From an uncultured Candidatus Binatia bacterium (GTDB taxonomy: Bacteria; Desulfobacterota; Binatia; UBA9968; JAJDTQ01): DNA of 64,000 nt. Under the pieces are notes generated by a model. The model was given only the letters and a program-made list of their open reading frames with translations, ran no database searches and was not told the origin of the DNA. Position 1 is the first letter of the stretch. Every line of letters begins with the position of its first letter. The translations under genes and the position numbers were made by a program. This document shows positions 44,680 to 64,000 of this stretch, piece after piece. The stretch covers positions 1 through 64,000 of the forward strand of contig CBDCAF010000018.1 of assembly GCA_965213675.1 (NCBI GenBank), given 5' to 3'.

Positions 44680-44683
44680 TTCC

Positions 44684-44722
44684 TTATTATGTAGAAGAAC
44701 ATTATGTTTGACAACATAATAA
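44684..44722. promoter_or_regulatory. Nested inverted repeats in the ATPase/drmD divergent region
   Basis: ATTATGTT-TGAC-AACATAAT (44701-44720) and TTATTATGT...ACATAATAA. Confidence 0.5.
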
Positions 44723-44731
44723 TCGGCAAGT

Positions 44732-47700
44732 TTGGCCAATTCTCGCAACTTCAGCGAATATGATAAAGCAACTACAGACTTGCCCGCACCGCTTGAGAGA
44801 ACGCCCTTGGAAGACGCCGCCCGACTATTACCCGAACGTTTCCCCGACGTCGGGGAACTCGTCGAAGTGCGTTCACGCCGCTGGCTGGTGGAGGCGGTGG
44901 AGTCGGAATCGGGCCGCGTCAGCCTTGCCTGCGCGGACGACGACGCCCAAGGGCAGACCCTGGAGGTCTACTGGGAATTCGAGATCGACCGGCGCATCCT
45001 TGAGGTGGAGGCGTGGAACGCCATCGGCGCCAAGGGGTTCGACGCGCCCCGCCACTTCAGCGCGTTCCTCCACACGTTGCGCTGGAACTGCGTCACCGCC
45101 ACCGACCCGAATCTCTTCCAGTCGCCGTTCCGGGCCGGCATCAAGATCGACGCCTACCAGATGGAGCCGCTCCGCAAGGCGCTTCGGCTGCCACGGGTCA
45201 ATCTGTTCATCGCGGACGATACCGGCCTCGGCAAGACCATTGAGGCCGGTCTCATCGCGCGGGAATTGTTGCTACGCAAGAAGGTCAAGACGATGGTCGT
45301 CGCCGCGCCGGCCTCCGTGCTGGAGCAGTGGAAGGCCGAGATGGAAGAGCGTTTCGGTCTGCTGTTCGTGATCCTCGACCGCGCTTACCTCACGCAGGTC
45401 CGGCAGGAACGCGGCTTCGGCGTGAATCCCTGGCGTACCCATAGCAGGTTCCTGGTGTCCCACAACCTGCTCATTGACCCGACCTACGCCGATCCGATGC
45501 GTGAGTGGCTCGGGGCTCTTCTGCCCGGCAGCCTGCTCATCCTCGACGAGGCCCACCATGCCGCGCCGTCGAGCGGCGGGCGTTACGGCATCGAGTCGAA
45601 GTTCACCCGGGCGGTCCGTGATGTTGGCGGCCGGTTCGAACACCGTCTGTTTCTGTCCGCCACTCCCCACAACGGCCACTCCAACAGCTTCTCCACGCTG
45701 CTTGAGCTGCTTGATCCGTACCGTTTTACCCGCGGCGTGCCGGTGCGGGGAAAGAAGGACCTCGACGAGGTCATGGTCCGGCGCATCAAGGAAGACATCC
45801 GCGAGGTGCAGGGCGGCTTCCCCAGACGGCACGTGGAGCCGGTTCGGATCGATGGCCTGCCGGACGACGCACCGGAACTCGTTTTGTCGAGGCTCCTTGA
45901 CGAATATCGCGGCTTGCGGGAGCAGCGGCTGGCCGGCGCCAGGCCGCGAGCCCAGGCCATGGCCGGTTTGCTCGTGGTGGGGCTGCAACAGAAGCTCCTG
46001 TCATCCATCGAAGCGTTCGCCATCTCGCTCGCGCGGCATCGCAGGACGATTGAGCGACTTTGGGCGCAAGACACTGAAGACGGTCAGAACGTCCCGGATA
46101 CACGGGTTGAGACCGTGGCGACCGAACCATTTCTGAAACTGTTCGCAAAACCGCCGGACGCGGACGACGAACGCGCGGAACAGACCGACGAAGAGAACGC
46201 GGCCGAGGAAGAGGCGCAGATCACGGCCATCAACGAGACTGCCGAGCTAGGTACCCCCACGGATGAAGGAGCAAAGGCGGCTTGGGATAAGGAGCAGGCC
46301 CTCCTGACTCGTATGCACGAAGTCGCCGATGGCGCCCGCGGCCGCCCTGACGCCAAGACCCGCCGCCTGATCGACTGGATCTACGACAACCTCTGTCCCG
46401 ACCGCCCGCGCTGGAACGAACGGCGGGTGCTGATCTTCACCGAGAACGTGATCGGCACGAAACGGTACTTGCGCGAGATGCTGGAGCAGGCCATTGCCGG
46501 CACCGACTTCGCCGAGGAGCGCATCGAGACCATTGACGGCCAGACCGCCGGCGCCAGGCGCAAGGAGATTCAACGTCGCTTCAACGCCGATCCGGCCCAC
46601 GATCCGTTACGCATCCTCATTGCCACAGACGCGGCGCGCGAGGGGCTGAACTTCCAGGCGCACTGCACCGACCTGTTCCACTTCGACCTGCCCTGGAACC
46701 CTGGCCGCATCGAACAGCGCAACGGCCGCATCGACCGCAAGCTGCAACCGGCCCCGGAGGTGCGCTGCCACTACTTCGTGCTGCCGCAGCGCGCCGAGGA
46801 CCGGGTACTTGAAGTGCTGGTTCGGAAGACCGCCACCATCAGGCAGCAGCTCGGCAGTCTCTCCAAAGTGATCGATGACGAGGTGGAGCGCCGGCTGCGC
46901 GAAGGCATCCGTCACGGAGACGTGGAGCGCATCGCGCGCGACATTGAGGCGGCCGATCTCGACCGTGAAAGGCGACGAGTAGCGGCCGAGGAACTGGAAG
47001 CCGCCCGCGAACGGCAGGACGACTTGAAGGGGCAGATCGAACGATGCCGCGGGCTGCTGGACCAGTCCCGCCGCTGGGTGCAGTTCGAGGCGCAACCCTT
47101 TCGCAACGCTCTGTCCTGTTCCCTGGAGATGCTGGGTGCGGAGCCGTTGAAGGAAACACGTACCGACGATGGCGGGGTGGTCTGGACGCTGCCGCCGCTG
47201 GCGGGCAAGGCGCGGGCGGATGCAAGTTGGACCGCCACACTGGACACGTTGCGCGCGCCGCGCAAGACCGACCAGAAGCTCGCGGAATGGCGGCAGCAGG
47301 CGCCGATTCGTCCGGTGGTGTTCGAGGATGCGGGTGTGCTCACCGACGACACCGTGCATTTGCACCTGGAACAACGCATGGCGCAACGGCTGCTGGCGCG
47401 CTTTCGCTCCCAGGGCTTCGTCTACCATGACCTGTCCCGCGCCTGTCTCGTGCAGGCCGCGGACTCCGTCCCTCGGGTGATTCTGCTGGGGCGGCTGTGT
47501 CTCTTCGGACGCCATGCCGAGCGTCTGCACGAGGAGTTGATCCCGGTGGCGGCCCGCTGGGTCGAGCCGTCGCGCCGCAACGGGCCGCTCAGGGCCTATG
47601 CCGAGGAGGCGGAAGCACGAACGCTGGAACGCCTGGAGACGGCCTTGCAGAGCGCACGAGGCCCGAACGAGACGATTCACCGCAGGCTGCGCGACATTGC

Positions 47701-48073
47701 CGCTCAGGATATCGAAGACCTGCTGCCGCAACTCGAAGACCGCGCCGAGGGTGTGGCCCGGAGCGCTGGGGACAGGCTTCGCGCACGTGGCGAAAGGGAG
47801 GGACAGCAGCTTCGGGAGACCCTGGAACGTCAGCGCCGGCGAGTGGAAACGGAACTCGGCAAGCACGAGGGCCGCGGAACCCAGCTCACGCTGGAGTTCA
47901 GTGAAGCCGAGAAGCGCCAGCTTCAGGCCGACATCGCGTCGTGGCGCGTGCGTCTGGACCGGTTCGACAAGGACCTTAAGACCGAACCGGCCCGGATCCG
48001 CGAGTTCTACGAAGTGCGGGCACAACGAGTCGAGCCCATCGGCTTGGTGTACCTGTGGCCGGACACCGGTTGA
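44732..48073 (+). CDS. drmD: DISARM SNF2-like helicase
   Basis: ADDTGLGKT, LDEAHH, LSATPHNG, TDAAREGLN and PWNPGRIEQRNGRIDR motifs; ends VEPIGLVYLWPDTG; upstream of an MTase; start uncertain. Confidence 0.88.
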   Translation: MANSRNFSEYDKATTDLPAPLERTPLEDAARLLPERFPDVGELVEVRSRRWLVEAVESESGRVSLACADDDAQGQTLEVYWEFEIDRRILEVEAWNAIGAKGFDAPRHFSAFLHTLRWNCVTATDPNLFQSPFRAGIKIDAYQMEPLRKALRLPRVNLFIADDTGLGKTIEAGLIARELLLRKKVKTMVVAAPASVLEQWKAEMEERFGLLFVILDRAYLTQVRQERGFGVNPWRTHSRFLVSHNLLIDPTYADPMREWLGALLPGSLLILDEAHHAAPSSGGRYGIESKFTRAVRDVGGRFEHRLFLSATPHNGHSNSFSTLLELLDPYRFTRGVPVRGKKDLDEVMVRRIKEDIREVQGGFPRRHVEPVRIDGLPDDAPELVLSRLLDEYRGLREQRLAGARPRAQAMAGLLVVGLQQKLLSSIEAFAISLARHRRTIERLWAQDTEDGQNVPDTRVETVATEPFLKLFAKPPDADDERAEQTDEENAAEEEAQITAINETAELGTPTDEGAKAAWDKEQALLTRMHEVADGARGRPDAKTRRLIDWIYDNLCPDRPRWNERRVLIFTENVIGTKRYLREMLEQAIAGTDFAEERIETIDGQTAGARRKEIQRRFNADPAHDPLRILIATDAAREGLNFQAHCTDLFHFDLPWNPGRIEQRNGRIDRKLQPAPEVRCHYFVLPQRAEDRVLEVLVRKTATIRQQLGSLSKVIDDEVERRLREGIRHGDVERIARDIEAADLDRERRRVAAEELEAARERQDDLKGQIERCRGLLDQSRRWVQFEAQPFRNALSCSLEMLGAEPLKETRTDDGGVVWTLPPLAGKARADASWTATLDTLRAPRKTDQKLAEWRQQAPIRPVVFEDAGVLTDDTVHLHLEQRMAQRLLARFRSQGFVYHDLSRACLVQAADSVPRVILLGRLCLFGRHAERLHEELIPVAARWVEPSRRNGPLRAYAEEAEARTLERLETALQSARGPNETIHRRLRDIAAQDIEDLLPQLEDRAEGVARSAGDRLRARGEREGQQLRETLERQRRRVETELGKHEGRGTQLTLEFSEAEKRQLQADIASWRVRLDRFDKDLKTEPARIREFYEVRAQRVEPIGLVYLWPDTG

Positions 48074-48078
48074 GACCC

Positions 48079-51000
48079 ATGCCTGCGCCCGACCCACACA
48101 CCCGCGCCCATCTCGAATGGCTCGGCTTCATCCAGCCGAACGGCCTCGTGGTCTCCGCTCCGGCCCTGGTCAAGGCTGGGGCCATCCTCAACCGGCACGA
48201 TGTCGAAGGGCAGGAGTTGCTGGACGCTTGGTTGAACCAACGCGATGGATCGCCTGCGCGCCCTCGGGAACAGTGCCTCCAGGACTTCCGCGTATTCGCG
48301 AAGACCATCCTCGGCTGGGGTTTCTCGCCCAAGGGATACGCGGGTACGGAGGAGACCCCTATCCCGGCGGCACTTAAGGTTCCTCTCCCCGACTACGGAG
48401 AGACGCTGCGTCCGGACTTCGCGGTGTGCGAGCGCGACCCGCAGGCCGGGGAATTGCCGTGGCAGTTGCTCGTGCAGGTGCTGGAAGAGGGTGAAGGCTT
48501 CGACAGGCCGACCGCCGGCGGACTGAAAACCTCTCCGCAGGATCGAATGGAGCGCCTCCTCCGCAGCACCGGAGTTCCTGCTGGTGTGCTCTTCAACGGC
48601 GCTGCGCTACGTCTCGTCTCGGCCCCGCGCGGCGAAAGCTCCGGCTGGATGGACTTTCGTTTGGCCGACATGGCCCAGACCGCGGGGCGGCCTCTGTGCG
48701 CGGCGTTGCGCCTTCTTTTGTGTGAGCAACGCCTGTTGACAGGGCCGAAGGAACATCGCCTGGCGGCGCTGCTCGCCGACAGCCGCCGGTATCAGAACGA
48801 GGTCAGCGAGCGGCTTTCCGAGCAGGTCATGCACGCACTCTATGACCTCCTTCGAGGGTTCCAGGCGGCCCAGGACGAATCCCGCGGAGAGCTGCTGCGG
48901 GAACCGCTCTCCGCGGAAGGCGACCCCAACGACATCTATCGCGGCCTTCTCGCCGTCATCCTCCGCCTCGTCTTTCTGCTCTACGCCGAGGAGCGCCGCA
49001 TGCTTCCGGGCGGCGAGACCTTCATCCAGCACTATTCGGTTGGCGGCCTCTACCAGCGCCTGCGCGAGGAGGCGGCCTTGCACCCGGATACCATGGATCA
49101 GCGCTACGGCGCGTGGGCGCAGCTTCTCGTGCTGTTCCGCCTTATTCACGACGGGGCGGGTGGGCACAAGACCGGAGGCAGCGTCAGCCTTCCGGAACGC
49201 CGCGGCGTTTTGTTCAACCCGGATCGGTATCCGTTCCTCGAGGGCCGTCACAGCGGCGGCGGCCGGCAGATCACCGAGCGGGTCCAGCCGCCGCTGGTCT
49301 CCGACGGCGCCGTCTACCGGGTGCTGGAGAAGCTGGTAGTCCTCGACGGCGAGCGCATTTCCTACCGCACCCTGGACGTGGAACAGATCGGGTCCGTTTA
49401 CGAGGTCATCATGGGCTTCCGTCTGGAGACCGCCACCGGCCGGTCCATGTCCGTCAAGTCCGCCAAGAAGCTTGGGGCGCCGAGCACCGTCGATCTCGAC
49501 GAGTTGGCGAGACAGCCCGGCGAACGTCGTGGGAAATGGCTCCAGGACCGCGTGGACCGCACCCTCACCGACACCGTCAGGAAGGGACTGCGGGCAGCCG
49601 ATACGGTGGATGACCTTCACTTGGCGCTGGACCGGGTGCTGGACAAGGACGCCACGCCGGACCTCGTCACTCCCGGCTCCCTGGTGCTGCAACCCAGTGA
49701 TGAGCGCCGCCGCTCGGGCTCCAACTACACGCCGCGGGAACTCACCGAACCGATTGTCCGCCACACTCTGGAGCCCCTGCTCAATCGGCTTCGCGGCGAG
49801 GATGGACAGGCACCGTCTCCCGCCCGGATTCTCGACCTCAAGATTTGCGATCCGGCCATGGGTTCCGGCGCCTTTCTGGTGGAAACCTGTCGCCAGCTCG
49901 CGGATGCGCTCACCGAGGCATGGCACAAGCACGATGAGACGCCGGTAATCCCGCCTGACGAAGACGAGGGGATCCATGCCCGCCGTCTGGTCGCCCAGAA
50001 GTGCCTCTACGGCATCGACCGGAATCCCATGGCTGTGGACCTGGCCAAGACCTCGCTGTGGCTCAGCACGTTGGCGCGGGACCACCCGCTCACCTTCCTG
50101 GACCACGCGTTCCGCCATGGCGACGCCCTCGTCGGATTGACCCGGAAACAGGCCGAGGCGTTCCACTGGATCCCGGATAGACCTCCTGAAGAGGGTTTCG
50201 AGATCATGAGGGTGCGGGAACACATGACGGAGTTGGCCGCGCTGCGCCAGCGCATCAGGGACGCGGGCGAGGATGTCTCCGATCAAGAACTGCACGACAT
50301 CTGGCAAGATGCGCGCGACGAGCTTGGCGCCGTCCGGCTCTACGGCGATCTGGCGCTGGCGGCGTTCTTCGCTGAAACCAAACGGGGGCCAAGGGAAGGG
50401 AAGAGGCGCGAATTCGCCGCAGCCGCCTGGGGTGGTCAGGCCGAGCGCTACCTGGGATGGATCGGGGACCAGCGCGGCAGCGACCCGCCGCTCGCTCCTT
50501 TCCACTGGGAAATCGAGTTCCCCGAGGTGTTCGAGCGCGAGAATCCGGGGTTCGACGCGTTCGTCGGGAACCCGCCGTTCGCCGGGAAAAATAGCGTCGT
50601 CGCTGGTAACGTCGTGGGTTATCCCGACTGGCTCAAGACCGTCCACAGAGAGAGCCACGGCAACGCCGACCTTGTAGCGCACTTCTACCGGCGTGCGTTC
50701 AACCTCCTGCGTGAAGGGGGCGCGTTCGGTCTGATTGCCACCAACACCATCGCCCAAGGCGATACCCGTTCCACCGGACTGCGCTGGATTTGCGAGAACA
50801 ACGGCTCGATCTTCCGCGCCACCAAACGGGTCAAGTGGCCCGGCGACGCGGCCGTGGTGGTCAGCGTGCTGCACGTCGCCAAGGGCGAATTTGCAGGAAC
50901 CAAGGTGCTCGACGGCAGGGATGTGGAGAACATCACCGCGTTCCTCTTCCACAAGGGCGGCCACGCCGACCCGGCGCGCCTCGAAGCGAACGCCGGCAAG

Positions 51001-53229
51001 AGCTTCCAGGGAAGCATCGTCCTCGGAATGGGCTTCACCTTTGACGACACGGACAAGAAGGGCGTCGCCAACCCGCTGTCGGAGATGCAGCGGCTGATCG
51101 AAGCAGACCCGCGCAACGGCGAGCGCATCTTCCCGTACATCGGTGGCGAGGAGGTGAACACCAGCCCGACCCACGCCCATCACCGATACGTGATCAACTT
51201 TGAGGACTTTCCGTTGCGGAGGGAGGACCTGGGAAAGCAGTGGGCGGACGCGGGGGAAGACTTGCGCCGCACATGGCTGCGGCGCGGGGTGGTCCCGCTG
51301 GACTATCCGGAGCCGGTGGCAGCGGATTGGCCGGATTTGCTGGCGATTGTGGATGAGCGAGTGAGGCCGGAGCGAAGCAAGCTCACGAAGAATCCCATCG
51401 GTCGAAAGCGAGCGGAGTTCTGGTGGCGTTACGGCTCGACGGCAAACGAACTCTACGCCGCCAGCGCCAGTCAGCCTCGAGTTTTGGTGATTTCGAGATA
51501 CGGACAAGTTGCTGCATTCACGTTCTTGCCCGCCGGCGCTGTCTATAGCGATTCATGCATCATATTCCCGGTCGACACCTATGCCGCCCTGTGCGTCCTC
51601 CAGTCCCGCCCCCACGAGATCTGGGTGCGCTTCTTTGGCTCGTCGATGAAGGACGACCTCCGCTACACGCCATCCGACTGCTTCGAGACTTTCGCTTTTC
51701 CTGATGATTGGGCAACGGCCACGGCGCTGGAGGCCGCAGGCAAGGCGTATTTTGAGCACCGAGTGACGCTGATGCTCTGTAACGGTGAGGGTCTGACCAG
51801 AACCTTAAACCGCTTTCATGACCCCTACGATGGCAATCCGAATATCATCCGTCTCCGAGAACTCCACGCCGCCATGGACCGCGCCGTCCTCGACGCCTAC
51901 GGCTGGACCGACATCCCCACCGACTGTGATTTCCTCCTCGACTACGAAATCGACGAGGCTACTTGGGGCGTGAAGAAAAAGCCGTACCGCTATCGCTGGC
52001 CCGACAAAATTTGCGACGAAGTCCTTGCTCGCCTTCTCGCCCTCAATGTTGAGCGTTCCGAAGAGGAAGCCCGTGCACGGCTGGTGCAGAAGCCGGTCCG
52101 AAAGAAACGCCATCGCGTCCTGATGGTGGCAGAACAACCTCCTCTCTGGGATCGTCCAATGACTGACCAGACTCCACAGCGGTTCACGCCGTTGGTGAAG
52201 CGCTCTCGTCCCAAGCCTTCGACGATCTATCCGGTTCTCTGGAAATTTGCGTGTGAGCGCCAGCGGGTCTATCTACGGCGCGTCGCAGGCGACCCAAGCC
52301 CGTGGACTACGGACACTGTGCTGTCAGAATACAAGTTCACGAATGCCTTCAGAGCCGCTGACAGGGTGAGTCAGTACCTGATTCAGTTGATCTATTCTGA
52401 TGCTAAGGCCAGCGGCGCCAACGTGTTTCTGAGAGCCCTTTTATTCAAGGTCTTCAACAAGATCGAGACGTGGGACAGGGTCGTTAACGGACTCGGCATG
52501 CCTGTCGCTCACGAGTTCGACTACGCGGCGTGCGACGATTTGCTTGTCAATCTTCGTCGGCAGGGGGCGCCGATTTACTCCGCCGCTTACATCATGCCAT
52601 CGGGAGGACGAGTCGGGATGCCGAAGCACCGGATGCATCTCGAACTGATTCGCAGAATGCTTGATGAACGCCTTCCGGAGAAGCTGCAGGAGTCGAAGTC
52701 GCTGGCTGAAGCCTACGAGATGGTTCTTTTGTATCCCACGTTGGGACCCTTTCTCGCTTTCCAGTACGTTATCGACCTAAATTATTCGACCCTGATGAAC
52801 CACTCGGAACAGAGATTCGTGGTTGCCGGCCCCGGCGCCTTGGATGGACTGTCCAAGTGCTTCGAGTCGCTTGGGGAGTATGATCCGGCCGACGCCATCC
52901 TATGGTTGTCCGACATCCAAGCGGACGAGTTCGCGCGGTATGGACTCGAATTCGGGGGTCTATGGGGACGCCCGCTTCAGCCGATCGATGTCCAGAATCT
53001 GTTCTGTGAGGTCTCGAAGTACACTCGGGTGACACATCCAGAGATAAGAGGCCTGACCAAGCGTAAACGCATCAAGCAAAGATTTGCGATGACAGGGCCG
53101 CTCGCCAAGCCCTTCTTCCCGCCCAAATGGGGCTTGAATCAACGAATTGACGAGTGGCTCCCGCGCCGAACGGGTGCAACTCTCGAACAACGCGAGCTTT
53201 TCTTCCCAACCCCAGCCAGGCCTACGTGA
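48079..53229 (+). CDS. drmMI: DISARM N6-adenine DNA methyltransferase fused in frame to an aGPT-Pplase1-like (base hypermodification) domain
   Basis: RSGSNYTP, DPAMGSGAFL, GNPPF and YIGGEE motifs; no stop before FACERQ...PWT.D..L..YKFTNAFRAADRVSQYLI...FLAFQY..DLNYS...IDVQNLFCEVSKY; internal ATG at 52159. Confidence 0.82.
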   Translation: MPAPDPHTRAHLEWLGFIQPNGLVVSAPALVKAGAILNRHDVEGQELLDAWLNQRDGSPARPREQCLQDFRVFAKTILGWGFSPKGYAGTEETPIPAALKVPLPDYGETLRPDFAVCERDPQAGELPWQLLVQVLEEGEGFDRPTAGGLKTSPQDRMERLLRSTGVPAGVLFNGAALRLVSAPRGESSGWMDFRLADMAQTAGRPLCAALRLLLCEQRLLTGPKEHRLAALLADSRRYQNEVSERLSEQVMHALYDLLRGFQAAQDESRGELLREPLSAEGDPNDIYRGLLAVILRLVFLLYAEERRMLPGGETFIQHYSVGGLYQRLREEAALHPDTMDQRYGAWAQLLVLFRLIHDGAGGHKTGGSVSLPERRGVLFNPDRYPFLEGRHSGGGRQITERVQPPLVSDGAVYRVLEKLVVLDGERISYRTLDVEQIGSVYEVIMGFRLETATGRSMSVKSAKKLGAPSTVDLDELARQPGERRGKWLQDRVDRTLTDTVRKGLRAADTVDDLHLALDRVLDKDATPDLVTPGSLVLQPSDERRRSGSNYTPRELTEPIVRHTLEPLLNRLRGEDGQAPSPARILDLKICDPAMGSGAFLVETCRQLADALTEAWHKHDETPVIPPDEDEGIHARRLVAQKCLYGIDRNPMAVDLAKTSLWLSTLARDHPLTFLDHAFRHGDALVGLTRKQAEAFHWIPDRPPEEGFEIMRVREHMTELAALRQRIRDAGEDVSDQELHDIWQDARDELGAVRLYGDLALAAFFAETKRGPREGKRREFAAAAWGGQAERYLGWIGDQRGSDPPLAPFHWEIEFPEVFERENPGFDAFVGNPPFAGKNSVVAGNVVGYPDWLKTVHRESHGNADLVAHFYRRAFNLLREGGAFGLIATNTIAQGDTRSTGLRWICENNGSIFRATKRVKWPGDAAVVVSVLHVAKGEFAGTKVLDGRDVENITAFLFHKGGHADPARLEANAGKSFQGSIVLGMGFTFDDTDKKGVANPLSEMQRLIEADPRNGERIFPYIGGEEVNTSPTHAHHRYVINFEDFPLRREDLGKQWADAGEDLRRTWLRRGVVPLDYPEPVAADWPDLLAIVDERVRPERSKLTKNPIGRKRAEFWWRYGSTANELYAASASQPRVLVISRYGQVAAFTFLPAGAVYSDSCIIFPVDTYAALCVLQSRPHEIWVRFFGSSMKDDLRYTPSDCFETFAFPDDWATATALEAAGKAYFEHRVTLMLCNGEGLTRTLNRFHDPYDGNPNIIRLRELHAAMDRAVLDAYGWTDIPTDCDFLLDYEIDEATWGVKKKPYRYRWPDKICDEVLARLLALNVERSEEEARARLVQKPVRKKRHRVLMVAEQPPLWDRPMTDQTPQRFTPLVKRSRPKPSTIYPVLWKFACERQRVYLRRVAGDPSPWTTDTVLSEYKFTNAFRAADRVSQYLIQLIYSDAKASGANVFLRALLFKVFNKIETWDRVVNGLGMPVAHEFDYAACDDLLVNLRRQGAPIYSAAYIMPSGGRVGMPKHRMHLELIRRMLDERLPEKLQESKSLAEAYEMVLLYPTLGPFLAFQYVIDLNYSTLMNHSEQRFVVAGPGALDGLSKCFESLGEYDPADAILWLSDIQADEFARYGLEFGGLWGRPLQPIDVQNLFCEVSKYTRVTHPEIRGLTKRKRIKQRFAMTGPLAKPFFPPKWGLNQRIDEWLPRRTGATLEQRELFFPTPARPT

Positions 53230-54301
53230 TTTCGCGGTAAAGAAGTTGCCGTTGATTCATGTCGAGCGTTACGTGTCCTCCCTCGTGTTCCCGGAGAGAC
53301 CTGAACACGCGATATCCTTTGAGAATGGCGGTTTCCCACCGCCATAGGGGAAGTTTGGCGACCTCGAAGCCTTGTATGAACTCCTTTACGGCCTTGAGCA
53401 GGTCATAGTCGACCTGGTCGATATTGTCGTAGTAGTTCATTTTCTTTGCCCGGCTGAATACAATGGCGGATACGGCCTCTTCGATAATTCTCGCCCGCGC
53501 ACCGTCCTCGTTCTCGTCCACCAGTGGATCGCTCTTCCGCTTGCACTTCAGTAGGTGTCTTATGACAGGTGACCATCCGAGGTACACGGCGTAAGCGAAA
53601 TGGAAAACATCGTGAAACCGGTAGAAGTCAGGCTGTCCGATATTGTCCGTCAGGCGATCCCCGAAGTTCAGTCCGTTACACCGGAGTATGGCCGTCACCT
53701 TGCTGTCCCGCTGGACTTGGCGAAAGTCGATATCGAGTTTACGTGGGAGCTGTTCCTCTTCCGGGAAGCCCTCATCGAAGAAAGGTGGGACGACATACCT
53801 CTCGGGCCATCGGCTCTGCGTCTTTTCCTGGTTCGTTCGCGCGGCCTCGTAGAGGTCGACGCCGGCGCCTTCCGCAACGTGAAATAGGGCGTCCCAGGTT
53901 GGCCCAAGCCTTCCGGAATCCATTCGGTCACGGTTTTGCACTGCACTGAGTAATTCGCCCGCCGCAACCCCGAGGGCCACTCCATCCCCCAAGGGTCCTG
54001 GGCTTCGCCCCGATAGGGCCTGCGCTCGCTTGTTCGCACGGTTCAGTGCCGACGGATCAAGAATGGCGGAGAGGCGCGCCAAGTACCAAAGACAATCTCC
54101 GATTTCTTCGACGAGCCGCTTACGGTATGCGGGATAGGCGTCGGTTTCACGTTGTTCCTTTTTCAATTCGGCGAGAACACTCCCCGCTTCACCGAAAAGA
54201 CCTGCCGCAAGGATGAGGGCGTGGTTCGGTTTGTCGACGAGTTGATCCGTTCGCTTTGCAGACTTGGCGTATTCAATGAGCCAAGACATCGGCTTTCTCA
54301 T
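53222..54301 (-). CDS. MazG-like nucleotide pyrophosphohydrolase with MazG_C domain
   Basis: GLFGEAG..EL..EEIGDCLWYL acidic motif; YRFHDVFHFAY..LGWSPVIR..KRKS...EDGARA..IEE. Confidence 0.8.
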   Translation of the reverse strand: MRKPMSWLIEYAKSAKRTDQLVDKPNHALILAAGLFGEAGSVLAELKKEQRETDAYPAYRKRLVEEIGDCLWYLARLSAILDPSALNRANKRAQALSGRSPGPLGDGVALGVAAGELLSAVQNRDRMDSGRLGPTWDALFHVAEGAGVDLYEAARTNQEKTQSRWPERYVVPPFFDEGFPEEEQLPRKLDIDFRQVQRDSKVTAILRCNGLNFGDRLTDNIGQPDFYRFHDVFHFAYAVYLGWSPVIRHLLKCKRKSDPLVDENEDGARARIIEEAVSAIVFSRAKKMNYYDNIDQVDYDLLKAVKEFIQGFEVAKLPLWRWETAILKGYRVFRSLREHEGGHVTLDMNQRQLLYREIT

Positions 54302-55067
54302 GTGCTTCCTTCAAGGAACGGAGATCGTCGAGCAGTTTCTGTAGCCGTCTTTCCGACCCCTCAAGGGTGGCATAAGACGAGTGGACCACCAGGGTGCCCA
54401 TGTCCTGCCCGGTCTCTTTGGCGACACAATCCTGGAGGCGGGCCAAACCAAGCAGGTTGCCTGGTACCTTGTATCGGTAGTCATGGCTCCGGTAGAATGC
54501 TGTCAGGTGGACCGCACCAACGAAGAGCTTGAACGAAAGGTGGGAGAGACAAGGATCGCCCCGTCGGCGTTTACCGTCTTTCACCGTGTTGTAGAGGGGC
54601 ATGTCGTATTCCCCTTCGGCGACATTAATGTCGTAACGGGATTTCATGGTTCCCTTGGTCGAAAGCTCCTTCTTCATATTGTCTATCATCTCCTTCAAGG
54701 GGTTCATGTCCGTGCCATCGGCTGTCTTTCGTCGAACCAGCCGATAGGCGTAGGTGTCCCAAAGGATCTTTGGATGCCGCTTGATCGCCGGAAAGGTCTT
54801 ATCGGGGTAGTCGTCGTAGACGCCCTTCAGTCCCCGCCTGCGATATTCTGACAAGGGAAAGATCGTTTCGGCCACCGAGTGAATCGGTAGTTGGTTTTCG
54901 CCCATAAAGAAGTCATCGAGTTTTTGCTCTGCGGCCTTGGGATAGCCCCTCTTTCCCGGTTCTCCGATCTCCAGCACAAGGTTCAGCATGGGACCGTTGG
55001 ACAACAGGAACTCGGCGGCGTCAACCCAGGCATCCATCCAGGCAGCGGTCTGGATCAATTTTGCCAT
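54273..55067 (-). CDS. Divergent thymidylate-synthase-superfamily enzyme
   Basis: PCLSHLSF (catalytic Cys), LTAFYRSHD, PGNLLGLARL and LVVHS motifs. Confidence 0.7.
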   Translation of the reverse strand: MAKLIQTAAWMDAWVDAAEFLLSNGPMLNLVLEIGEPGKRGYPKAAEQKLDDFFMGENQLPIHSVAETIFPLSEYRRRGLKGVYDDYPDKTFPAIKRHPKILWDTYAYRLVRRKTADGTDMNPLKEMIDNMKKELSTKGTMKSRYDINVAEGEYDMPLYNTVKDGKRRRGDPCLSHLSFKLFVGAVHLTAFYRSHDYRYKVPGNLLGLARLQDCVAKETGQDMGTLVVHSSYATLEGSERRLQKLLDDLRSLKEAHEKADVLAH

Positions 55068-55696
55068 CACGTCACCTCCTCCGTGAGGGCCAGTAGGTCG
55101 CGTAGATGACGGGCGAGGAAGGCGTCGTCGAGCCATGCATGGCCGTTGTCACCCCATTCGGCACCCCAGCTATTCCTGACCAGGAAGCACCGCGATGTAT
55201 CGGCGGTCCCCAAACCGACCGCTACGACTGCGTGAAGACCTCGGATCGGGCCGTCGTGCGAGATTAACCAAAGAGGTGTAGGCGACAAAAAGTCGTCTGG
55301 TATGGAAATGCCGAGAACAGGCGTTTGCCCAGCGTTTAGCAGGGTTTCGACCTCATCTGCGGTAGCATCCTTCTGAACGCTCTTGCGTGGGTACAGTCGC
55401 ACGCCTGCCGGTGGCATCCAGCCGAGAGGCAAACCGTCGGGATAGTAGGGGCAGTCTGCTTCCGCGGGCTGCCCAGGGTCTTGCAGGGCACGAGATGTCT
55501 CCAGGAATGCTGCGCCATCCGTCGGATTGTGGACCGACGCAAAGTAGTGGAGATACTCCGGCGAGAGCGCCATCTTGGAGCCGCGCACGCGTTCGTGTGC
55601 GCTCGTGCAGGCAAATGATAGACATGTGGGCCGGGCGCCCTGGTCCCGAATCGGGCCGAGGCTTTGCCGGTGGTCGACGAGAACGGTGATGTTCAT
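55067..55696 (-). CDS. Papain-like C1 cysteine peptidase (no signal peptide or prodomain)
   Basis: IRDQGARPTCLSFA, LHAVVAVG and VRNSWGAEWGDNGHAW motifs. Confidence 0.85.
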   Translation of the reverse strand: MNITVLVDHRQSLGPIRDQGARPTCLSFACTSAHERVRGSKMALSPEYLHYFASVHNPTDGAAFLETSRALQDPGQPAEADCPYYPDGLPLGWMPPAGVRLYPRKSVQKDATADEVETLLNAGQTPVLGISIPDDFLSPTPLWLISHDGPIRGLHAVVAVGLGTADTSRCFLVRNSWGAEWGDNGHAWLDDAFLARHLRDLLALTEEVT

Positions 55697-56676
55697 GCTG
55701 CATTTGCCAGTGCGTCGAGTTTGGCTTTTCTCGGGAAGCCGCCGGATTCCTTTCCATGAGCATCGATTTTGATCGCGATATGGTCGAGTGTCGCGCCGCT
55801 CCATGGGCGGGCGTGTTCAAAGGCGAGTCGATGTGTGCCAGGAGTATTGAAACGGACATACACGACACGGGCTGAAGGCCGTCCATAGACTCTGTCCGAG
55901 TCTGCTGTGTGCTCTGCGATGACCTCGGAGCTGGCTCCGGTGTCGATGAGCCTCCAGATGTAGCCGGCGGAAACGTTGTCCTCCAGATGGACTGCGAAGA
56001 GATCGTCGGGTCCGGCTTCGAGAAACGTGTCGGTGTCACCACAGGTCAAAGCCCAGACGTCGGCCCAGGAGTTCGTGATCAGTTCTGCGGGTGCCAACGC
56101 CCGCTTCAGTTCCTTGACCGGCGTCGCTTCGAGTTGTTTGGCTTCCGCGCGCGTAAGGACCTTGGACGTTACCAAACCCCAGCATGCGGCTTGGTAGCTG
56201 ATGCCCAAGCGAAGGGAAAGTTGGTAGATGTTGCGCGGTTGATGCAGCTCTTGCCTTTTCCAGCCATGGCGTGTGGCGGATTCTACCATGAGCTGTTTTG
56301 ATGCCAGCAGCTCCGAGGCAAAGGTGTCAGCGGCCACCTCCTCAATCGCACGTGACCCTGAAGCGTGACGTCCCGCGAACCCAACGGTTTTATCCAGGCT
56401 TGACTCATGCCCCAGCACCCAGTGTCCGAGCTCGTGGGCCAGTGTAAACCGCTGAACGGCCAGTCCCATGCGACTCGTAACGATGATGCCTCGGGCACCC
56501 TTGCCAGCGGGAACAACGGCGCCCCAAAGATGATCCAGCGGCCGAAAGACGAGGGGGATGTCCCGCGTGGTGATCGCGCTGACAATGTCGAAACTGGTGC
56601 GGTCACTCTTGGCAGTTGAGGCGAGAATCTTGGCTGCTTCTCTGACGGCTCGCAAAGTCTCGTTACGTCTGTTCAT
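55693..56676 (-). CDS. ImmA/IrrE metallopeptidase with C-terminal chagasin (I42)-like domain
   Basis: RFTLAHELGH and E..AD.FASELL; C-terminal LEDNVSAGYIW...PGTHRLAFEHARPW. Confidence 0.78.
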   Translation of the reverse strand: MNRRNETLRAVREAAKILASTAKSDRTSFDIVSAITTRDIPLVFRPLDHLWGAVVPAGKGARGIIVTSRMGLAVQRFTLAHELGHWVLGHESSLDKTVGFAGRHASGSRAIEEVAADTFASELLASKQLMVESATRHGWKRQELHQPRNIYQLSLRLGISYQAACWGLVTSKVLTRAEAKQLEATPVKELKRALAPAELITNSWADVWALTCGDTDTFLEAGPDDLFAVHLEDNVSAGYIWRLIDTGASSEVIAEHTADSDRVYGRPSARVVYVRFNTPGTHRLAFEHARPWSGATLDHIAIKIDAHGKESGGFPRKAKLDALANAA

Positions 56677-57025
56677 CCGGTTTCCTCGACCGCAGGAATT
56701 GGGCGAAACGAAGAACCTCCTCCCGGTCGGTCACCGACAGTTCAGCGGTCGCCCGTGCTACCAGTCGTACCGACTCCGGCTCCGGGCTCTCCAGATCGGG
56801 TCCGGTGAGGCTCTCCATGTTGGTCTGATAGAGCGTGGCAAGGCGCTGAAGTTCCAATGCATCGACACGTCGCGCCCGATTCTCCATGAGTGAAATGGCG
56901 GATCTGGGAAGGCCGAGATGTGCGGCAACCTCTTCCTGGGTGAACCCGCAGTATTCCCGCGCCTCCTTTAGCCGCGTGCTCAGGGTGCCACGCTTGGCTG
57001 GCTGGCCGTGATTATCGTCGTTCAT
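56663..57025 (-). CDS. XRE-family HTH transcriptional regulator
   Basis: RLKEAREYCGFTQEEVA..LG..RSAISLMEN; GGAGGT RBS. Confidence 0.88.
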   Translation of the reverse strand: MNDDNHGQPAKRGTLSTRLKEAREYCGFTQEEVAAHLGLPRSAISLMENRARRVDALELQRLATLYQTNMESLTGPDLESPEPESVRLVARATAELSVTDREEVLRFAQFLRSRKPDEQT

Positions 57026-57059
57026 TTACCACCTCCAATCGGATGGGTTGGCGTCAAGC

Positions 57060-57455
57060 TCAGGAGATCTTTCTCATCATTTCGGGTACAAGATGATCGA
57101 TCATGTCGTCGATGCTCTGGTAACCTCCAGGACGAATCAGCCGAACGTCAATGGGGCGACCTAGGTATCGCTGAAAAATCGGAGAGCTGCGGGCCACAGC
57201 CTTTGAGTCCAACTCAGGCATGGAATCCCACAGGTCGGAGTTGCTCCTGTCACTGACCATTCCGTTACGACTCGCTTCCACTTGTAAATCCCAGTCTCCC
57301 ATCTCCTGACTCGCCCATTCCCTGAGTTCTTTTCTCAAGAGGGCCTCCTTGTTCGGCCCACGGCCCCTCACGGTCCTCAGCGTGGAGGTATCCCAGAACG
57401 AAAGGGGAATCTGGGATGAAGATTTAGGGGCTTGGGTAGGGATTTTGTGTTCCAT
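57060..57455 (-). CDS. Hypothetical protein, possible divergent acyl-carrier-like protein
   Basis: ELDSKAV...YLGRPID...YQSIDDMIDHL matches ACP helix II-IV spacing; directly downstream of a PPTase; start uncertain. Confidence 0.5.
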   Translation of the reverse strand: MEHKIPTQAPKSSSQIPLSFWDTSTLRTVRGRGPNKEALLRKELREWASQEMGDWDLQVEASRNGMVSDRSNSDLWDSMPELDSKAVARSSPIFQRYLGRPIDVRLIRPGGYQSIDDMIDHLVPEMMRKIS

Positions 57456-57489
57456 AACGGAACAAGATTAGCACCGTAATGTTCGAAAG

Positions 57490-58161
57490 TCAAACATTGC
57501 GTTGGGGCAATTCCGGCTGTTGTGACAACAAGGCAACTGAGCCCACCCAGGGACGGACGGCGGTGGTGCAGCAAACCTCTACAGCGATTCGGTCGAAATG
57601 AGCAACGCCGTTCATCATCCCTTGTGGCGCAACTTCCTTCCACGAGAGTCGTACGTTGTCGTAGCCGAATCGGACACCAAGAACAGGGTTCAAAGCCTTG
57701 AAAACGGCTTCCTTCACCGACAGTAGGATCACCGAGCCTGCAACACCCCAGTCCAGAGGCAACTCGTCGGACGCGATCAGTCCTTTGATTGACAGGAGTT
57801 CCCGACCGCGGTCCAGAGTCTCGATGTCGATGCCGACGGACCTCACGTGACTGATCCGAGATAGCCCAGCCACAACTTTGGTGCCTTTATGGCTCACGCT
57901 CCCCGTGTAACCCGGTGGCCAGTCTCGGGCGCCGGAGGCGAGGTGCCCTGGCTCATTGGCAGACAGCCCAGCACTCTCCAGCAGATTGGTCAGACAGGTC
58001 GCCGTGGCCTTCCGTCTCGCGCGTTCCACGACGGGGACACGTTCAGCGGACAGGACGTCCTGAGGGCCTGGTAGCCAATGCGCAAAAGAACCGCCCCTGA
58101 TGCTCACTTCAGGTGCCAAGCGTTTGAGTTCGTCAACGAGGGGGTCACGTTGCAGATACAT
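57490..58161 (-). CDS. 4'-phosphopantetheinyl transferase (EntD/Sfp-type)
   Basis: WPPGYTGSVSH, VGIDIE and SVKEAVFKA motifs. Confidence 0.8.
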   Translation of the reverse strand: MYLQRDPLVDELKRLAPEVSIRGGSFAHWLPGPQDVLSAERVPVVERARRKATATCLTNLLESAGLSANEPGHLASGARDWPPGYTGSVSHKGTKVVAGLSRISHVRSVGIDIETLDRGRELLSIKGLIASDELPLDWGVAGSVILLSVKEAVFKALNPVLGVRFGYDNVRLSWKEVAPQGMMNGVAHFDRIAVEVCCTTAVRPWVGSVALLSQQPELPQRNV

Positions 58162-58343
58162 GGTTTGATTTTTGCCGTTTACGGGTCTGCGTGGGGTCGA
58201 TATCGGTTGGGTGCCGTGACGACGGCTGGCTTCTCGTTGTCTCCCGTGCCCCAGTTCTTCCGCTTGGGGCATATCGTCTCATCGGGTAACCTATTCTATA
58301 GGCCGCCGGTTCCGTGGGCGAGCCCCCATTGGACGCGATCCTG

Positions 58344-58742: not shown

Positions 58743-58761
58743 CCGCGAGGAGACACATCCA

Positions 58762-59259: not shown

Positions 59260-59276
59260 AGACCGCTATCGTCTGT

Positions 59277-61300: not shown

Positions 61301-61681
61301 ATGACCTACCGAGAGCCATTGCCCCCTGGATGTCCGCCGAACCCCGCGGACGAAATCAACCTGCCACGTGAGCTGTTCCGGTTGGTGCGGAGCCTTCCAC
61401 CCGCCGCAGAGGACTTCAGATCGTGGCGCGCGGAACAACCGCAACGCGGTTTACCGAAGGAGTTGACGGAGTGCCAAGCCCGGGGACTGTCGGTCTATGC
61501 AGAGCGCTACGACCTGGAGAGCATCTTGAAGCTCCCGAAGTTCCGCGGACGTTGGATCTGTCGCCTGCGGCTGGGAGCGGGCGCGGGCCGGATTCAACAG
61601 ACGGGGAGACCTTCGCACCATACTTGGTGGCCGCTGGCTGATTACGATTTCCTCGGCCAGTGTCACGTGGAAACGGCATGA
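61301..61681 (+). CDS. Hypothetical protein, possible ADP-ribosyltransferase-like fold
   Basis: GCPP, LFRLV, EDF, CQARGLSVY and HHTWW segments; ATGA overlap with the next gene. Confidence 0.55.
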   Translation: MTYREPLPPGCPPNPADEINLPRELFRLVRSLPPAAEDFRSWRAEQPQRGLPKELTECQARGLSVYAERYDLESILKLPKFRGRWICRLRLGAGAGRIQQTGRPSHHTWWPLADYDFLGQCHVETA

Positions 61682-64000
61682 GTACGATCCGTTACACCGC
61701 CAGTCTGCTGTACTACGACGGCCCACAGATCATCGAAGCCCGCGACGATGAGGGTCACGATTATCTGGCGTTGTTGGTGGAGAGTGACGGGGAAGACCGC
61801 TATCTGGCCGTGGAGGTTGCCGCTGATCGGTTGCACCAATTTCGCAATGGTTCGCTGGACTTGAGGACGCTGCTGACCGAGTCGGCGAAGAATGGGTGGT
61901 ATCTGACGACGACCGCGGATCTCGATCAACCGTTGACGATTGTGCGCCAGCAGACGCCGGTCGGGGAAAGCGGATTTCTTCCCGCGGACGGCTTTGTGCT
62001 GCATGAATTGGGCTCGCCCGTTGAGCGCAAGCAAGAGAGCGTTGAGATGCCCACGAGACCGCCGAAGCTTGCCGACTCCGCTGAAGCGCGCGCCGAAATC
62101 ACCCGCGCCCTCCGCCTGGACCTCGTCGGCCCCGGCGCGGACGGCTATCTCGCCGACGAGCAACTCCCCGGTTGGGTGCGTCCGTCCAACTGGTACCTCA
62201 CCGGCTTCCTTGTTCCACGCTATGCCGGCTTTGAGCAGCGCGCCGATGCGGACTCGGACGATGAGATGGAGCCGGAGGTCTGCGAGGACATAGGCGCTGG
62301 CGACGACTCCAGCGAAGACCGTCGTGCCGCCAAGGCGGGGTTCTTTCCGTCGTCCATGGGTTTGAGCTTTCTCGCGGCGCCGGGGACCGACCGTGTCACC
62401 GCGGTCGTGCGCTGGGGCGACTACCGGAAGGTCGAGGGCAAGGTTTCCGCTGAAGAGGGAAGCGAATTGCCGGTTCGGTGGCAACGCACGCGGTGCGAAG
62501 CAACCCTGTCCATGGTCTTGCCGGAAGACAATTCGCCGCGGCATCTGCCTGTGCCCCACTCACGGGGCCTCGAAGTCCACGTCGTGGCCCGGACCATGGA
62601 CGCGAGCCTCTTTGCCGGGAAGATCGCTCGGGACACGCGCTCCGTCTCCGTATTTCTGGTCAACGCCCGAGCACCGGCCGAGGACGACCGGCGGGACGAG
62701 GCATTTGCCTTTCAAGCACAGATCGAAGTGCAGTCCGATGTCCCTTTCGCCGTGCGGCCCGACCTTCGCCCTGTATCGGGCGACAACTGGGATGAACGGG
62801 TGGCCGACCTGCACTATGCCGATGTTCCCGAGTATGCTTCCGGGCACGGCGTGGCAGCGACTTGGGAGGTCCGGGGCGGCGCCTGTCATGCCTTGCGAAC
62901 GGACTGGACGCCCATCGCGGAAGTGGAGCATACCGAGCCGCTCACACACCTTGCCCGAACCGAACTGGACATGACTGCGCTGGGCCGGCTCGCCGATGGC
63001 GAGGCCGTGCGAACGGCTCTGATGCCGCTGGTATCCGGATACCGTGAGTGGGTCGAAGCGCATGCACTCGGAGACCTCCCGGAGCAGCGGAAAGAGGTCG
63101 CTCGGGAGTTGCTGCACCGTGCCCGCCTGGCGGCAAGGCGCATGGAAAAGGGCATCGGCGTACTGGCCTCCGATGTGGAGGCGCGAGATGCTTTCTGCAT
63201 GGCCAACCGGGCCGTCGCTGCGGCATTGGCGCGGCGCATCGAAGACCCTCCCCGGTGGCGCGCCTTCCAACTCGCATTCGTGCTGTTGAACCTGCCCGGA
63301 ATCGCCGACCCTTCCGATCCCGAGCGCGAGATCGTCGACCTGCTGTTTTTTCCCACCGGCGGCGGCAAGACCGAGGCGTATCTCGGTCTGGCGGCCTTCA
63401 CCATGGCGTTGCGGCGGCTGCGCAACCCTGCGGACAACGGACGCGCTGGCGCCGGCGTCAGCGTCATCATGCGGTATACGCTACGCCTGTTGACACTGGA
63501 CCAACTCGGTCGCGCCGCCGCGCTGGTGTGCGCGATGGAACTTGAACGTAAACGCGATGTTGAACGCTACGGCGTGTGGCCGTTCGAGATCGGCCTGTGG
63601 GTCGGCAAGGCGGGCACTCCCAACTGGCTCGGCAAGAAGGGCGACCGCAATTCGGATTCCGCGCGTGCCAAGGTCAACCGGTACAAGGACAATCCGCAGG
63701 CTCGGCCCATACCCATCCCGCTGGAGAACTGTCCCTGGTGTGCCCACAGGTTCACGCCCGATTCCTTTGCGCTGCTGCCGAACGCCGACGCGCCCACGGA
63801 TTTGCGCATTTCTTGCTCGAACTGGGAATGCGAGTTTTCCGGCGACCCGCCGCTTCCTATCGTTGCTGTGGACGAGCCCCTGTACCGGCGTCTGCCGGCC
63901 TTTCTGATTGCCACGGTGGACAAGTTCGCGTCTCTGCCTTGGGTTGGACAGTCCGGGGCGCTGCTCGGCGGCGCGGACCGCTTCGATGACGAAGGGTTCT
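61678..64000 (+). CDS. drmA: DISARM helicase DrmA with N-terminal DUF6575-like domain; truncated by window end (absent from the ORF track)
   Basis: Manual translation open from ATG 61678: MSTIRYTASLLYYDGPQII..., then from ATG 62047 LRLDLVGP, PSNWYLTGFL, FPSSMGLSF, WRAFQLAF, FPTGGGKTEAY, MRYTLRLLT, CPWC and IATVDKFA. Confidence 0.88.
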   Translation, partial: MSTIRYTASLLYYDGPQIIEARDDEGHDYLALLVESDGEDRYLAVEVAADRLHQFRNGSLDLRTLLTESAKNGWYLTTTADLDQPLTIVRQQTPVGESGFLPADGFVLHELGSPVERKQESVEMPTRPPKLADSAEARAEITRALRLDLVGPGADGYLADEQLPGWVRPSNWYLTGFLVPRYAGFEQRADADSDDEMEPEVCEDIGAGDDSSEDRRAAKAGFFPSSMGLSFLAAPGTDRVTAVVRWGDYRKVEGKVSAEEGSELPVRWQRTRCEATLSMVLPEDNSPRHLPVPHSRGLEVHVVARTMDASLFAGKIARDTRSVSVFLVNARAPAEDDRRDEAFAFQAQIEVQSDVPFAVRPDLRPVSGDNWDERVADLHYADVPEYASGHGVAATWEVRGGACHALRTDWTPIAEVEHTEPLTHLARTELDMTALGRLADGEAVRTALMPLVSGYREWVEAHALGDLPEQRKEVARELLHRARLAARRMEKGIGVLASDVEARDAFCMANRAVAAALARRIEDPPRWRAFQLAFVLLNLPGIADPSDPEREIVDLLFFPTGGGKTEAYLGLAAFTMALRRLRNPADNGRAGAGVSVIMRYTLRLLTLDQLGRAAALVCAMELERKRDVERYGVWPFEIGLWVGKAGTPNWLGKKGDRNSDSARAKVNRYKDNPQARPIPIPLENCPWCAHRFTPDSFALLPNADAPTDLRISCSNWECEFSGDPPLPIVAVDEPLYRRLPAFLIATVDKFASLPWVGQSGALLGGADRFDDEGF

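Follow-up and report, generated by a model that had tools for sequence, protein, structure and literature searches.

In a 64,000-nucleotide stretch of contig CBDCAF010000018.1 from an uncultured Candidatus Binatia bacterium (hereafter the window), the DNA methylase gene drmMI of a class 1 DISARM defence system continues without interruption into a 356-aa domain of Pfam family PF18723, a family found in thymidine-hypermodifying phages and in many bacteria. We consider it probable that this open reading frame (ORF) is a genuine fusion of a complete DrmMI with a complete PF18723 protein from a separate cassette, that it reflects a tolerated and recurrent loss of a stop codon, and that the tethering of the two proteins is dispensable. 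We rated the fusion in this way because stand-alone forms of the domain are far commoner, fused and unfused forms are interleaved on a tree, and the cassette survives the decay of DISARM.

The fused reading frame and its stand-alone relatives

A single uninterrupted frame occupies 48055..53229 on the forward strand and encodes 1724 aa counted from GTG 48055. The preliminary description of this locus, which was made from the sequence alone, had begun the gene at ATG 48079, 5 bases past the drmD stop, and this appears to be the likelier true start because the consensus of the relatives opens with MPxPDP. The frame consists of two parts:

48055..52158, forward strand: DrmMI portion (N6-adenine DNA methylase) with Eco57I/MmeI-type methyltransferase and TRD domains (PADLOC PDLC02643 and Pfam)
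52159..53229, forward strand: PF18723 domain, in frame with DrmMI and equal to a full stand-alone gene of 356 aa (Pfam, BLASTP to ViI gp160, AlphaFold2 model)

Since the PADLOC DrmMI profile (PDLC02643) aligns over aa 15-1354 of the ORF (1261 bits, profile positions 6-1332 of 1347), DrmMI is complete ahead of the junction. Pfam identified Eco57I, MmeI_Mtase, MmeI_TRD and N6_Mtase on the fused ORF, with no P-loop kinase domain, and the translation contains both DPAMGSGAF (S-adenosylmethionine-binding motif I) and the catalytic NPPF, as GNPPFAG. The DrmMI tail LARLLALNVERSEEE and the junction PLWDRP-MTDQ are also both in the translation, with a linker of ...QKPVRKKRHRVLMVAEQPPLWDRP ahead of the junction Met, and ATG 52159, which is residue 1369, opens the 356-aa stretch. 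The in-frame joining of a methyltransferase tail to a domain of ~356 aa, as first described, was thus borne out, with the frame open and both parts complete.

A stop codon lost, or an indel introduced, during metagenome assembly could have created a false fusion, and the assembly (21 contigs, 8% estimated contamination) and a drop in GC content from 0.66 to 0.57 near the junction would both suit such an error. However, the GC shift begins ~650 nt ahead of the junction, within drmMI, and Logan contigs from four runs (X1-X4), which may include the source sample, were identical to the window or differed by substitutions only. The contig of run X1 (6660 nt) showed 0 differences over 51897-53400 and that of run X2 (1076 nt) 0 differences across 52159, while those of runs X3 and X4 (1083 nt) carried 9 substitutions, corresponding to a variant strain with the same frame. 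None of the contigs of these four runs has an indel at the 52159 junction, and they cross ~52100-52170, where the preliminary description had pointed to read support, with no stop or frameshift. Before position 51897, Logan coverage is broken up into fragments among which DrmMI genes of other organisms pile up, and no contig spans the whole ORF. The same fusion is held by a separate genome record and by several protein clusters from other assemblies, and an assembly or sequencing artefact is very unlikely.

The separate record is a Candidatus Binatia metagenome-assembled genome (L006), whose domain is 97% identical and whose open frame runs for 1774 codons across the junction. We found 15 proteins of 948-3017 aa that carry the domain, 11 of which also have a DNA methylase domain, and about nine protein clusters retain the fused frame, down to ~72% identity in both halves. 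In P0122 and P0123 the methylase part is 89% and 80% identical, respectively, and the domain 93-94%, with P0123 having Leu at the position of the junction Met. In P0124, P0127, P0128 and P0129 the methylase part is 72-73% and the domain 70-74% identical, and the linkers, which are of low complexity and up to ~45 residues longer, are still in frame. Homologues with the same fusion therefore exist (L006 and the P0122-P0129 set), and the two parts are not always separate. Other methylases carry the domain as well: P0130 and P0131 have it fused to an Eco57I-type methylase that is 21-25% identical to DrmMI, and P0134 combines NADAR, PF18723 and an N6_N4 methylase. Three further long proteins have other architectures, namely a Ser/Thr kinase with FGE-sulfatase and PF18723 (P0132), PF18723 with no other family in 1359 aa (P0135), and PF18723 with a family-A DNA polymerase, Toprim and an AAA_25 helicase (P0136).

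Stand-alone forms of the domain dominate, with at least 8000 matches of 195-623 aa versus the 15 long ones. The stand-alone protein P0002 (356 aa, 89% identical, 100% coverage) begins at the Met of ATG 52159, and in locus L008 the stand-alone gene starts at the same Met (offset 0), with a TGA closing a drmMI remnant before it. Since these stand-alone relatives begin at the Met of ATG 52159, the fusion looks like a stop loss between adjacent genes. In a maximum-likelihood tree built quickly from 82 domain sequences, including 11 fused rows, there are at least three changes of the fused state on well-supported branches: the window's clade (P0001, P0122 and P0123) is sister to the stand-alone P0002 and P0003, and the stand-alone P0015-P0017 are nested within the fused P0124-P0129 group. 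Together, these comparisons suggest that the adjacency of drmMI and the PF18723 gene is stable and that the intervening stop comes and goes.

Family and predicted fold of the added domain

PF18723 matched ORF residues 1391-1665 with an E value of 8e-93 and, when the domain was searched alone, positions 3-280 of the 281-position profile (E 3e-94, 316 bits against a cut-off of 25); it was the sole Pfam match of the domain at E<=10. In the Pfam copy used, the entry is named HMUDK_hel, '5-hmdU DNA kinase, helical domain', where 5-hmdU is 5-hydroxymethyldeoxyuridine, and no entry is called aGPT-Pplase1, the label under which the domain had first been described. The view that this label was wrong, taken from the Pfam naming, was overturned by the placement of two phage proteins in PF18723. 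ViI gp160 (Vi01_130c, orf00160), entered as 'aG/PT-PPlase1' by Lee et al. 2018 (PMC5889632, Table 3), itself matches PF18723 (E 4e-83), and Montesquieu MONT_52, whose deposited phage record bears the name 'aGPT-Pplase clade 1', matches PF18723 only. BLASTP aligned the domain with ViI gp160 at 26% identity (E 1e-24, aa 13-305), a full-length homology that includes the shared motifs PWT, F.N..R..DR.S, LGPFLA.Q..D..Y, AGPG and QN.FCE.SKYTR. Because PF18723 is the family of ViI gp160, the aGPT-Pplase1 label was right in substance, and the profile search recovers the domain. By homology, then, the added domain belongs to the clade-1 family that the literature calls aG/PT-PPlase1 and for which Pfam now uses another name. 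The proposal of this family reportedly goes back to Iyer et al. 2013. Two other ViI enzymes have different Pfam families, PF18724 ('ADDT') for the characterised transferase gp247 and PF18747 ('HMUD2') for the kinase gp243; PF18724 gave no match to the domain at E<=10, though the same library recognises ViI gp247. PF18723 comprises 4149 clusters at 50% identity, and the 504 phage records with a homologue are mostly of ViI-like and M6-like phages.

To predict its fold, we modelled the domain with AlphaFold2 from 73 diverse sequences (predicted local distance difference test 93, predicted template-modelling score 0.90), superseding a first model from 21 close sequences that reached only 70 on the former score and gave weak matches only. 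The best match in the PDB by Foldseek is PaMx11 gp46, a 5-phosphomethyldeoxyuridine glycinyltransferase (probability 0.97, E 0.07, template-modelling score 0.34-0.43). A VIA search, which does not depend on Foldseek, placed human QNG1/DUF2419 (7ugk) on top, with Z 10.3 and 245 residues aligned at a root-mean-square deviation (rmsd) of 6.0 and 7% identity, followed by gp46/PUGT (8z2m; Z 9.8, rmsd 4.2, 221 of 287 residues aligned) and then by Mag1, AlkA, Ogg, NTHL1, EndoIII, AGOG, OGG1, MutY and MBD4. Rows 1-25 are all chains of the helix-hairpin-helix (HhH) glycosylase superfamily, with Z of 4.3-10.3, values that helical models can score by chance, and unrelated chains begin at about Z 4.3. Since the match list is uniform and the coverage good, we regard the predicted HhH DNA-glycosylase fold as sound. 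By sequence, the domain matched 0 PDB chains at E<=10. The first reading of the domain, as a DNA-glycosylase-fold member of a phage thymidine-hypermodification family, agrees with the results from Pfam, BLASTP to gp160 and VIA.

In the 73-sequence alignment R34, R65, D68, R69, F99, Q202, D206, G226, D277, E284, K287, P321 and W324 are invariant, and C283 is near-invariant. Clade-2 enzymes require a Cys with an adjacent Glu (PMC8989533), and Cys247 of gp46 attacks C6 of the flipped pyrimidine (PMC11472151). From the model, we infer that C283/E284 is the counterpart of the clade-2 Cys-Glu pair.

The cassette and its place within DISARM

Behind the fused ORF, a run of genes on the opposite strand accompanies the PF18723 gene:

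53222..54301, reverse strand: MazG pyrophosphohydrolase fused to MazG_C (Pfam MazG_C E 2e-78 and MazG; PHROG 229 MazG-like)
54273..55136, reverse strand: divergent thymidylate synthase (TS)-like enzyme, candidate pyrimidine hydroxymethylase (Pfam Thymidylat_synt E 5e-5, TIGR03283 E 5e-10)
55067..55804, reverse strand: papain-like (C1) peptidase (Pfam Peptidase_C1 E 7e-10)
55693..56676, reverse strand: M78 (ImmA/IrrE-type) metallopeptidase fused to a chagasin-type I42 inhibitor (Pfam Peptidase_M78, Inhibitor_I42)
56663..57025, reverse strand: XRE-type helix-turn-helix (HTH) regulator (Pfam HTH_31/HTH_3)
57060..58272, reverse strand: two ORFs co-conserved with the cassette, one of 131 aa with no family and one of 260 aa with weak 4'-phosphopantetheinyl-transferase likeness (blastn, Pfam)

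We searched by tblastn with the window proteins against 80 loci of species-representative genomes with the closest homologues; PADLOC (2023) has no models for the cassette genes, and NCBIfam none for the PF18723 domain or MazG_C. MazG-MazG_C is present in 57 of the 80 loci, lying within 300 nt of the PF18723 gene in 46 of these 57, and the TS-like gene in 52; 42 loci have both and 13 have neither. Either HTH or M78 occurs in 57/80 (M78 in 49, HTH in 44), and the papain-like peptidase is syntenic in 21/80. The PF18723 gene has an N-terminal extension of more than 150 codons in 24/80 loci, and all seven of the ~590-aa extended proteins tested (7/7) are Thymidylate_kin joined to PF18723. In L063, PF18723 is fused to MazG-MazG_C (704 aa). 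In L006, the nearest relative to carry this fusion, the window's TS-like, papain-like, M78 and HTH genes are replaced by an Nmad2 (PF18753) gene at 12215-12841 on the reverse strand, and MazG-MazG_C is 73% identical, versus 97% for the fused domain of the same locus. The ViI gp160 gene likewise adjoins a MazG-like gene. This conservation marks PF18723 as the signature gene of a separate and widely spread cassette, conserved across phyla and composed, on these comparisons, of PF18723, MazG-MazG_C, a TS-like or Nmad2 gene, HTH/M78 regulators and, in some loci, a deoxynucleoside monophosphate (dNMP)-kinase-like domain. The predicted functional partners of the domain are accordingly its cassette neighbours and not the DISARM genes. 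A complex prediction for the PF18723 domain with MazG-MazG_C scored 0.00, which is evidence neither way on binding.

The MazG-MazG_C gene converges on the fused ORF with an 8-nt overlap. Its acidic MazG motif residues (E/D) are invariant in the alignment, as are D219, N220, Y227, R228, H230, D231, H234, G242-P245, R248, K254, R255, D266, R269, E274 and E275 of MazG_C, which looks like an enzyme active site of unassigned kind; the 'nucleotide kinase' label of the literature is not evident in the sequence. The Atlas neighbours of the TS-like gene carry the name thymidylate synthase, and by eye, against ThyA motifs, it appears to keep a DPCLSH Cys and a YRSHDY motif. This gene is also the sole ThyA-profile match, below cut-off, in the 97.7%-complete genome, and the organism presumably makes thymidine monophosphate by a route other than ThyA. 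The preliminary description had noted no 5-hmdU kinase gene in the window, and this holds beyond it: neither PF18747 (HMUD2 kinase) nor PF18724 (ADDT) was found in the genome.

The HTH and M78 genes are adjacent, upstream of the TS-like and MazG genes on the same strand, and we take the pair to resemble damage-responsive CapH/CapP regulator pairs (a predicted role). The M78-I42 inhibitor gene overlaps the papain-like peptidase gene next to it, a protease-inhibitor pairing within a regulator module that is co-conserved in 21/80 loci. Of the two distal ORFs, that of 260 aa has weak Pfam ACPS/4PPT_N matches (E ~5e-4), and the blastn blocks of L007, L008 and L009 extend to window positions 57969-58177.

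The fused ORF and this cassette lie within a DISARM locus in the order drmD, drmMI::PF18723, ~8.4 kb of cargo, drmA and drmB, and the cargo contains two further defence genes:

44732..48073, forward strand: drmD, SNF2-type helicase of class 1 DISARM (PADLOC DrmD PDLC02621, E 3e-303, aa 36-1111)
58762-59259, forward strand: ThsB-like TIR protein (PADLOC ThsB E 3e-67, also PDC-M50B; Pfam ThsB_TIR)
59256-60512, forward strand: HEC-01A / AAA_21 ATPase (PADLOC HEC-01A E 7e-150; Pfam AAA_21)
61660..63999, on to 65460 of the contig, forward strand: drmA (NCBIfam DISARM_DrmAS E 3e-168; PADLOC DrmA, L086)
65370-67286 of the contig, after drmA: drmB (PADLOC DrmB, L086)

As in class 1 DISARM (drmD, drmMI, drmA, drmB, drmC), the first four genes stand in canonical order with full-length profile matches. 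The locus differs in that drmMI has an extra 356-aa domain, that the ~8.4 kb before drmA hold other defence genes, and that no drmC was recognised among the ORFs tested. After drmB, where drmC might sit, there is an 866-aa ORF with no family match (contig 67902-70502, reverse strand), with NADH dehydrogenase genes next to it, and the gene immediately before drmD (43294-44748, reverse strand) encodes an ATPase_2 / DUF234 protein that also has an HTH.

The ThsB-like TIR protein and the HEC-01A ATPase are candidates for a second defence pair in the slot between drmMI and drmA. The same slot in L006 holds a related ATPase, a TIR protein, an 8xMP membrane protein and a ParE toxin. GC content is ~0.57 over ~51500-62000 versus ~0.65 outside. 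This segment starts ~650 nt before the end of drmMI, spans the whole cargo and ends ~350 nt into drmA, in keeping with an exchange of cargo through recombination inside the DISARM genes on either side. L007 and L008 retain drmMI 3' and drmA 5' remnants, as such an exchange would leave, and we saw no phage structural or integrase genes, as a prophage origin of the low-GC segment would bring, among the ORFs tested at 53222-61681.

Eight of the 80 loci, which belong to several phyla, have DISARM genes flanking the cassette. Among them, L006 carries the fusion. An intact drmMI lies 5.5-6 kb upstream of the cassette in L010 and L028, the DISARM genes of L023 are in a different order, and L012 has a drmD fragment. 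In L007 and L008 only the last ~40-110 codons of drmMI remain, directly before a stand-alone PF18723 gene, and in L009 drmD and drmMI have large internal deletions while the cassette is intact. By blastn, L007 joins window position 43177 to 51853, so drmD and most of drmMI have been lost there; 51853-58167 is kept, and drmA is internally deleted. The cassette persists where DISARM does not, and in this lineage the slot between drmMI and drmA that it occupies varies in cargo.

Explanations of the fusion and relation to known systems

DefensePredictor, a study with 42 newly validated E. coli defence units, names '5-hydroxymethyluracil kinase' and thymidylate synthase among the domains that it newly links to defence (PMC13092281). 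A legend of the same source describes one system with TS, dNMPk, 5hmdUk and NMAD, and the source gives MazG, MazG-C and aGPT-Pplase systems as predicted. By these domain labels, which are the whole of the comparison, we judge the validated anti-phage E. coli system to be a relative of the window's cassette: TS-like and 5hmdUk (PF18723) domains are common to both, and relatives of the cassette carry Thymidylate_kin with PF18723, or Nmad2 (L006). On the other hand, the window uses MazG-MazG_C, adds the papain-like and M78-I42 peptidases, and has no dNMPk or NMAD.

The explanation that we favour, a tolerated stop loss, would run as follows. The PF18723 gene lay directly behind drmMI on the same strand, and loss of the drmMI stop would have fused the two genes, a state that appears to be tolerated, persisting and flipping back and forth among close relatives. 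The cassette itself may be an inducible anti-phage module under HTH/M78 control, in which the TS-like enzyme would make a C5-substituted pyrimidine nucleotide, for example 5-hydroxymethyl-dUMP, and MazG would bias or clean the pool of deoxynucleoside triphosphates. After induction, the modified base could enter newly made DNA, chiefly that of the phage, and the PF18723 enzyme would flip this base out and act at C5 via Cys-Glu chemistry, in the manner of the related phage transferases, or pass it to a kinase-like partner, leaving DNA that may be unusable or marked. The tether to DrmMI would hold the enzyme on DNA beside DISARM and would not be needed for function. Since phosphorylation of 5-hydroxymethyluracil (hmU) in templates turns bacterial transcription off in vitro (PMC6457204), the disabling of phages by such chemistry is plausible.

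Several observations weigh against this explanation. Three independent methylase fusions exceed what adjacency predicts and point to a functional link, and the fused state has been kept, with linkers in frame, down to ~72% identity, which favours selection over neutrality. The interleaving comes from a tree built by a quick, unfinished search. For the chemistry, PMC5889632 left the role of ViI gp160 open, and no enzymatic activity was reported for any PF18723 protein in the literature that we found. An hhalign comparison of the family profile with ViI gp247 gave no significant alignment, so the Cys-Glu equivalence is one of fold and position alone. The Thymidylat_synt match of the TS-like gene falls below the Pfam cut-off, and the cassette in the window has neither the dNMP-kinase-like nor the NMAD domain named for the validated E. 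coli system. MazG_C has no Walker A motif by eye, and the 'kinase' step is therefore left with no clear candidate.

Two other explanations accept the frame as real. The preliminary description had offered, as its own alternative, that the drmMI stop was removed and that the domain is translated from ATG 52159; the stop loss agrees with the evidence above, while separate translation, with the long product minor or inert, stands as a rival that we hold to be unlikely. It would explain why the stand-alone P0002 and L008 genes open at this very Met and why the bases TCTGGGATCGTC ahead of ATG 52159, which contain a weak GGGA Shine-Dalgarno-like element 7 nt ahead of the ATG, are conserved in fused and unfused loci alike. 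However, P0123 has Leu in place of this Met, the group at ~72% identity has long in-frame linkers with no conserved Met at the start of the domain, and nothing halts ribosomes that read through from drmMI.

Functional coupling is the other explanation, and we consider it doubtful. Here, the site recognition of DrmMI would place the domain, which would write a thymine-derived self mark or attack hmU-type phage DNA. The independent joining of the domain to three kinds of methylase (DrmMI-type, the Eco57I type of P0130/P0131 and the N6_N4 type of P0134) argues for such a role, as do the linkers kept in frame at ~72% identity of both halves, the missing internal Met of P0123, the presence of the cassette in or beside DISARM in several phyla and a predicted fold that is that of base-flipping DNA enzymes. 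Yet the stand-alone forms outnumber the long ones by at least 8000 matches to 15, fused and unfused forms are interleaved, the cassette is retained where DISARM is deleted or decayed, and the genome has neither the ADDT nor the HMUD2 kinase to finish a phage-type pathway. Moreover, the conserved partners of the domain are MazG-MazG_C and the TS-like gene, not DISARM genes. The evidence lends no support to the initial proposal that the methylase targets hypermodification to its sites, or senses modified phage DNA, and the cassette of the domain outlives the loss of drmD and drmMI. It is likewise improbable that the fusion is functional in the stronger sense that the host writes an hmU-derived mark beside N6-methyladenine, or that it converts hmU, forced by the cassette into incoming DNA, to a lesion that blocks at sites where DrmMI is bound. 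If it were, the locus would encode a pyrimidine-hypermodification arm of a restriction-like system in the host, and would provide a first activity for the clade-1 (gp160) family.

Even if the fusion is merely tolerated, as we favour, the locus reveals a slot for cargo within DISARM and a simple way in which neighbouring defence genes can become fused. PF18723 is here the predicted core of a conserved cassette of bacteria that belongs, by its domain labels, to a type recently found to act against phages and that has settled repeatedly between drmMI and drmA, and fusions of the domain to DNA methylases have arisen on several independent occasions. The locus offers a concrete, testable lead to the function of the clade-1 'pyrophosphorylase' and touches the question of whether the DNA-modification chemistry of phages is used by bacteria to combat them. 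Among the matches listed in our literature search, no paper treated DrmMI together with hypermodification-type, TS or MazG families, and no work on bacterial fusions was found under aGPT-Pplase1, PF18723 or HMUDK_hel. The families are known and the cassette type has recently been tied to defence; the novelty lies in the fusion itself, in a cassette nested within DISARM in several phyla and in methylase fusions that recur.

The closest known systems share single aspects of this arrangement. Phage ViI gp160 is a PF18723 member with full-length homology and a MazG-like neighbour, as here, whereas the window's domain is in a bacterial host and fused to a defence methylase, in a genome where no 5-hmdU DNA kinase or clade-2 transferase was found. 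The PF18724 transferases PaMx11 gp46, M6 gp51 and ViI gp247 (ADDT, formerly aGPT-Pplase2) provide the nearest solved fold besides QNG1 and, to judge from PMC8989533 and PMC11472151, a conserved Cys beside Glu in a C-terminal helix, as in the domain; they differ from it by the missing PF18724 match and the null hhalign result with gp247. QNG1 (DUF2419), a queuosine-5'-monophosphate glycosylase, is the best structural match of the domain but shows no sequence-level relation to it, with 7% identity and an rmsd of 6.0, and there is no queuosine context. QNG1 shows that proteins of this fold can take free nucleotides as substrates, in addition to DNA.

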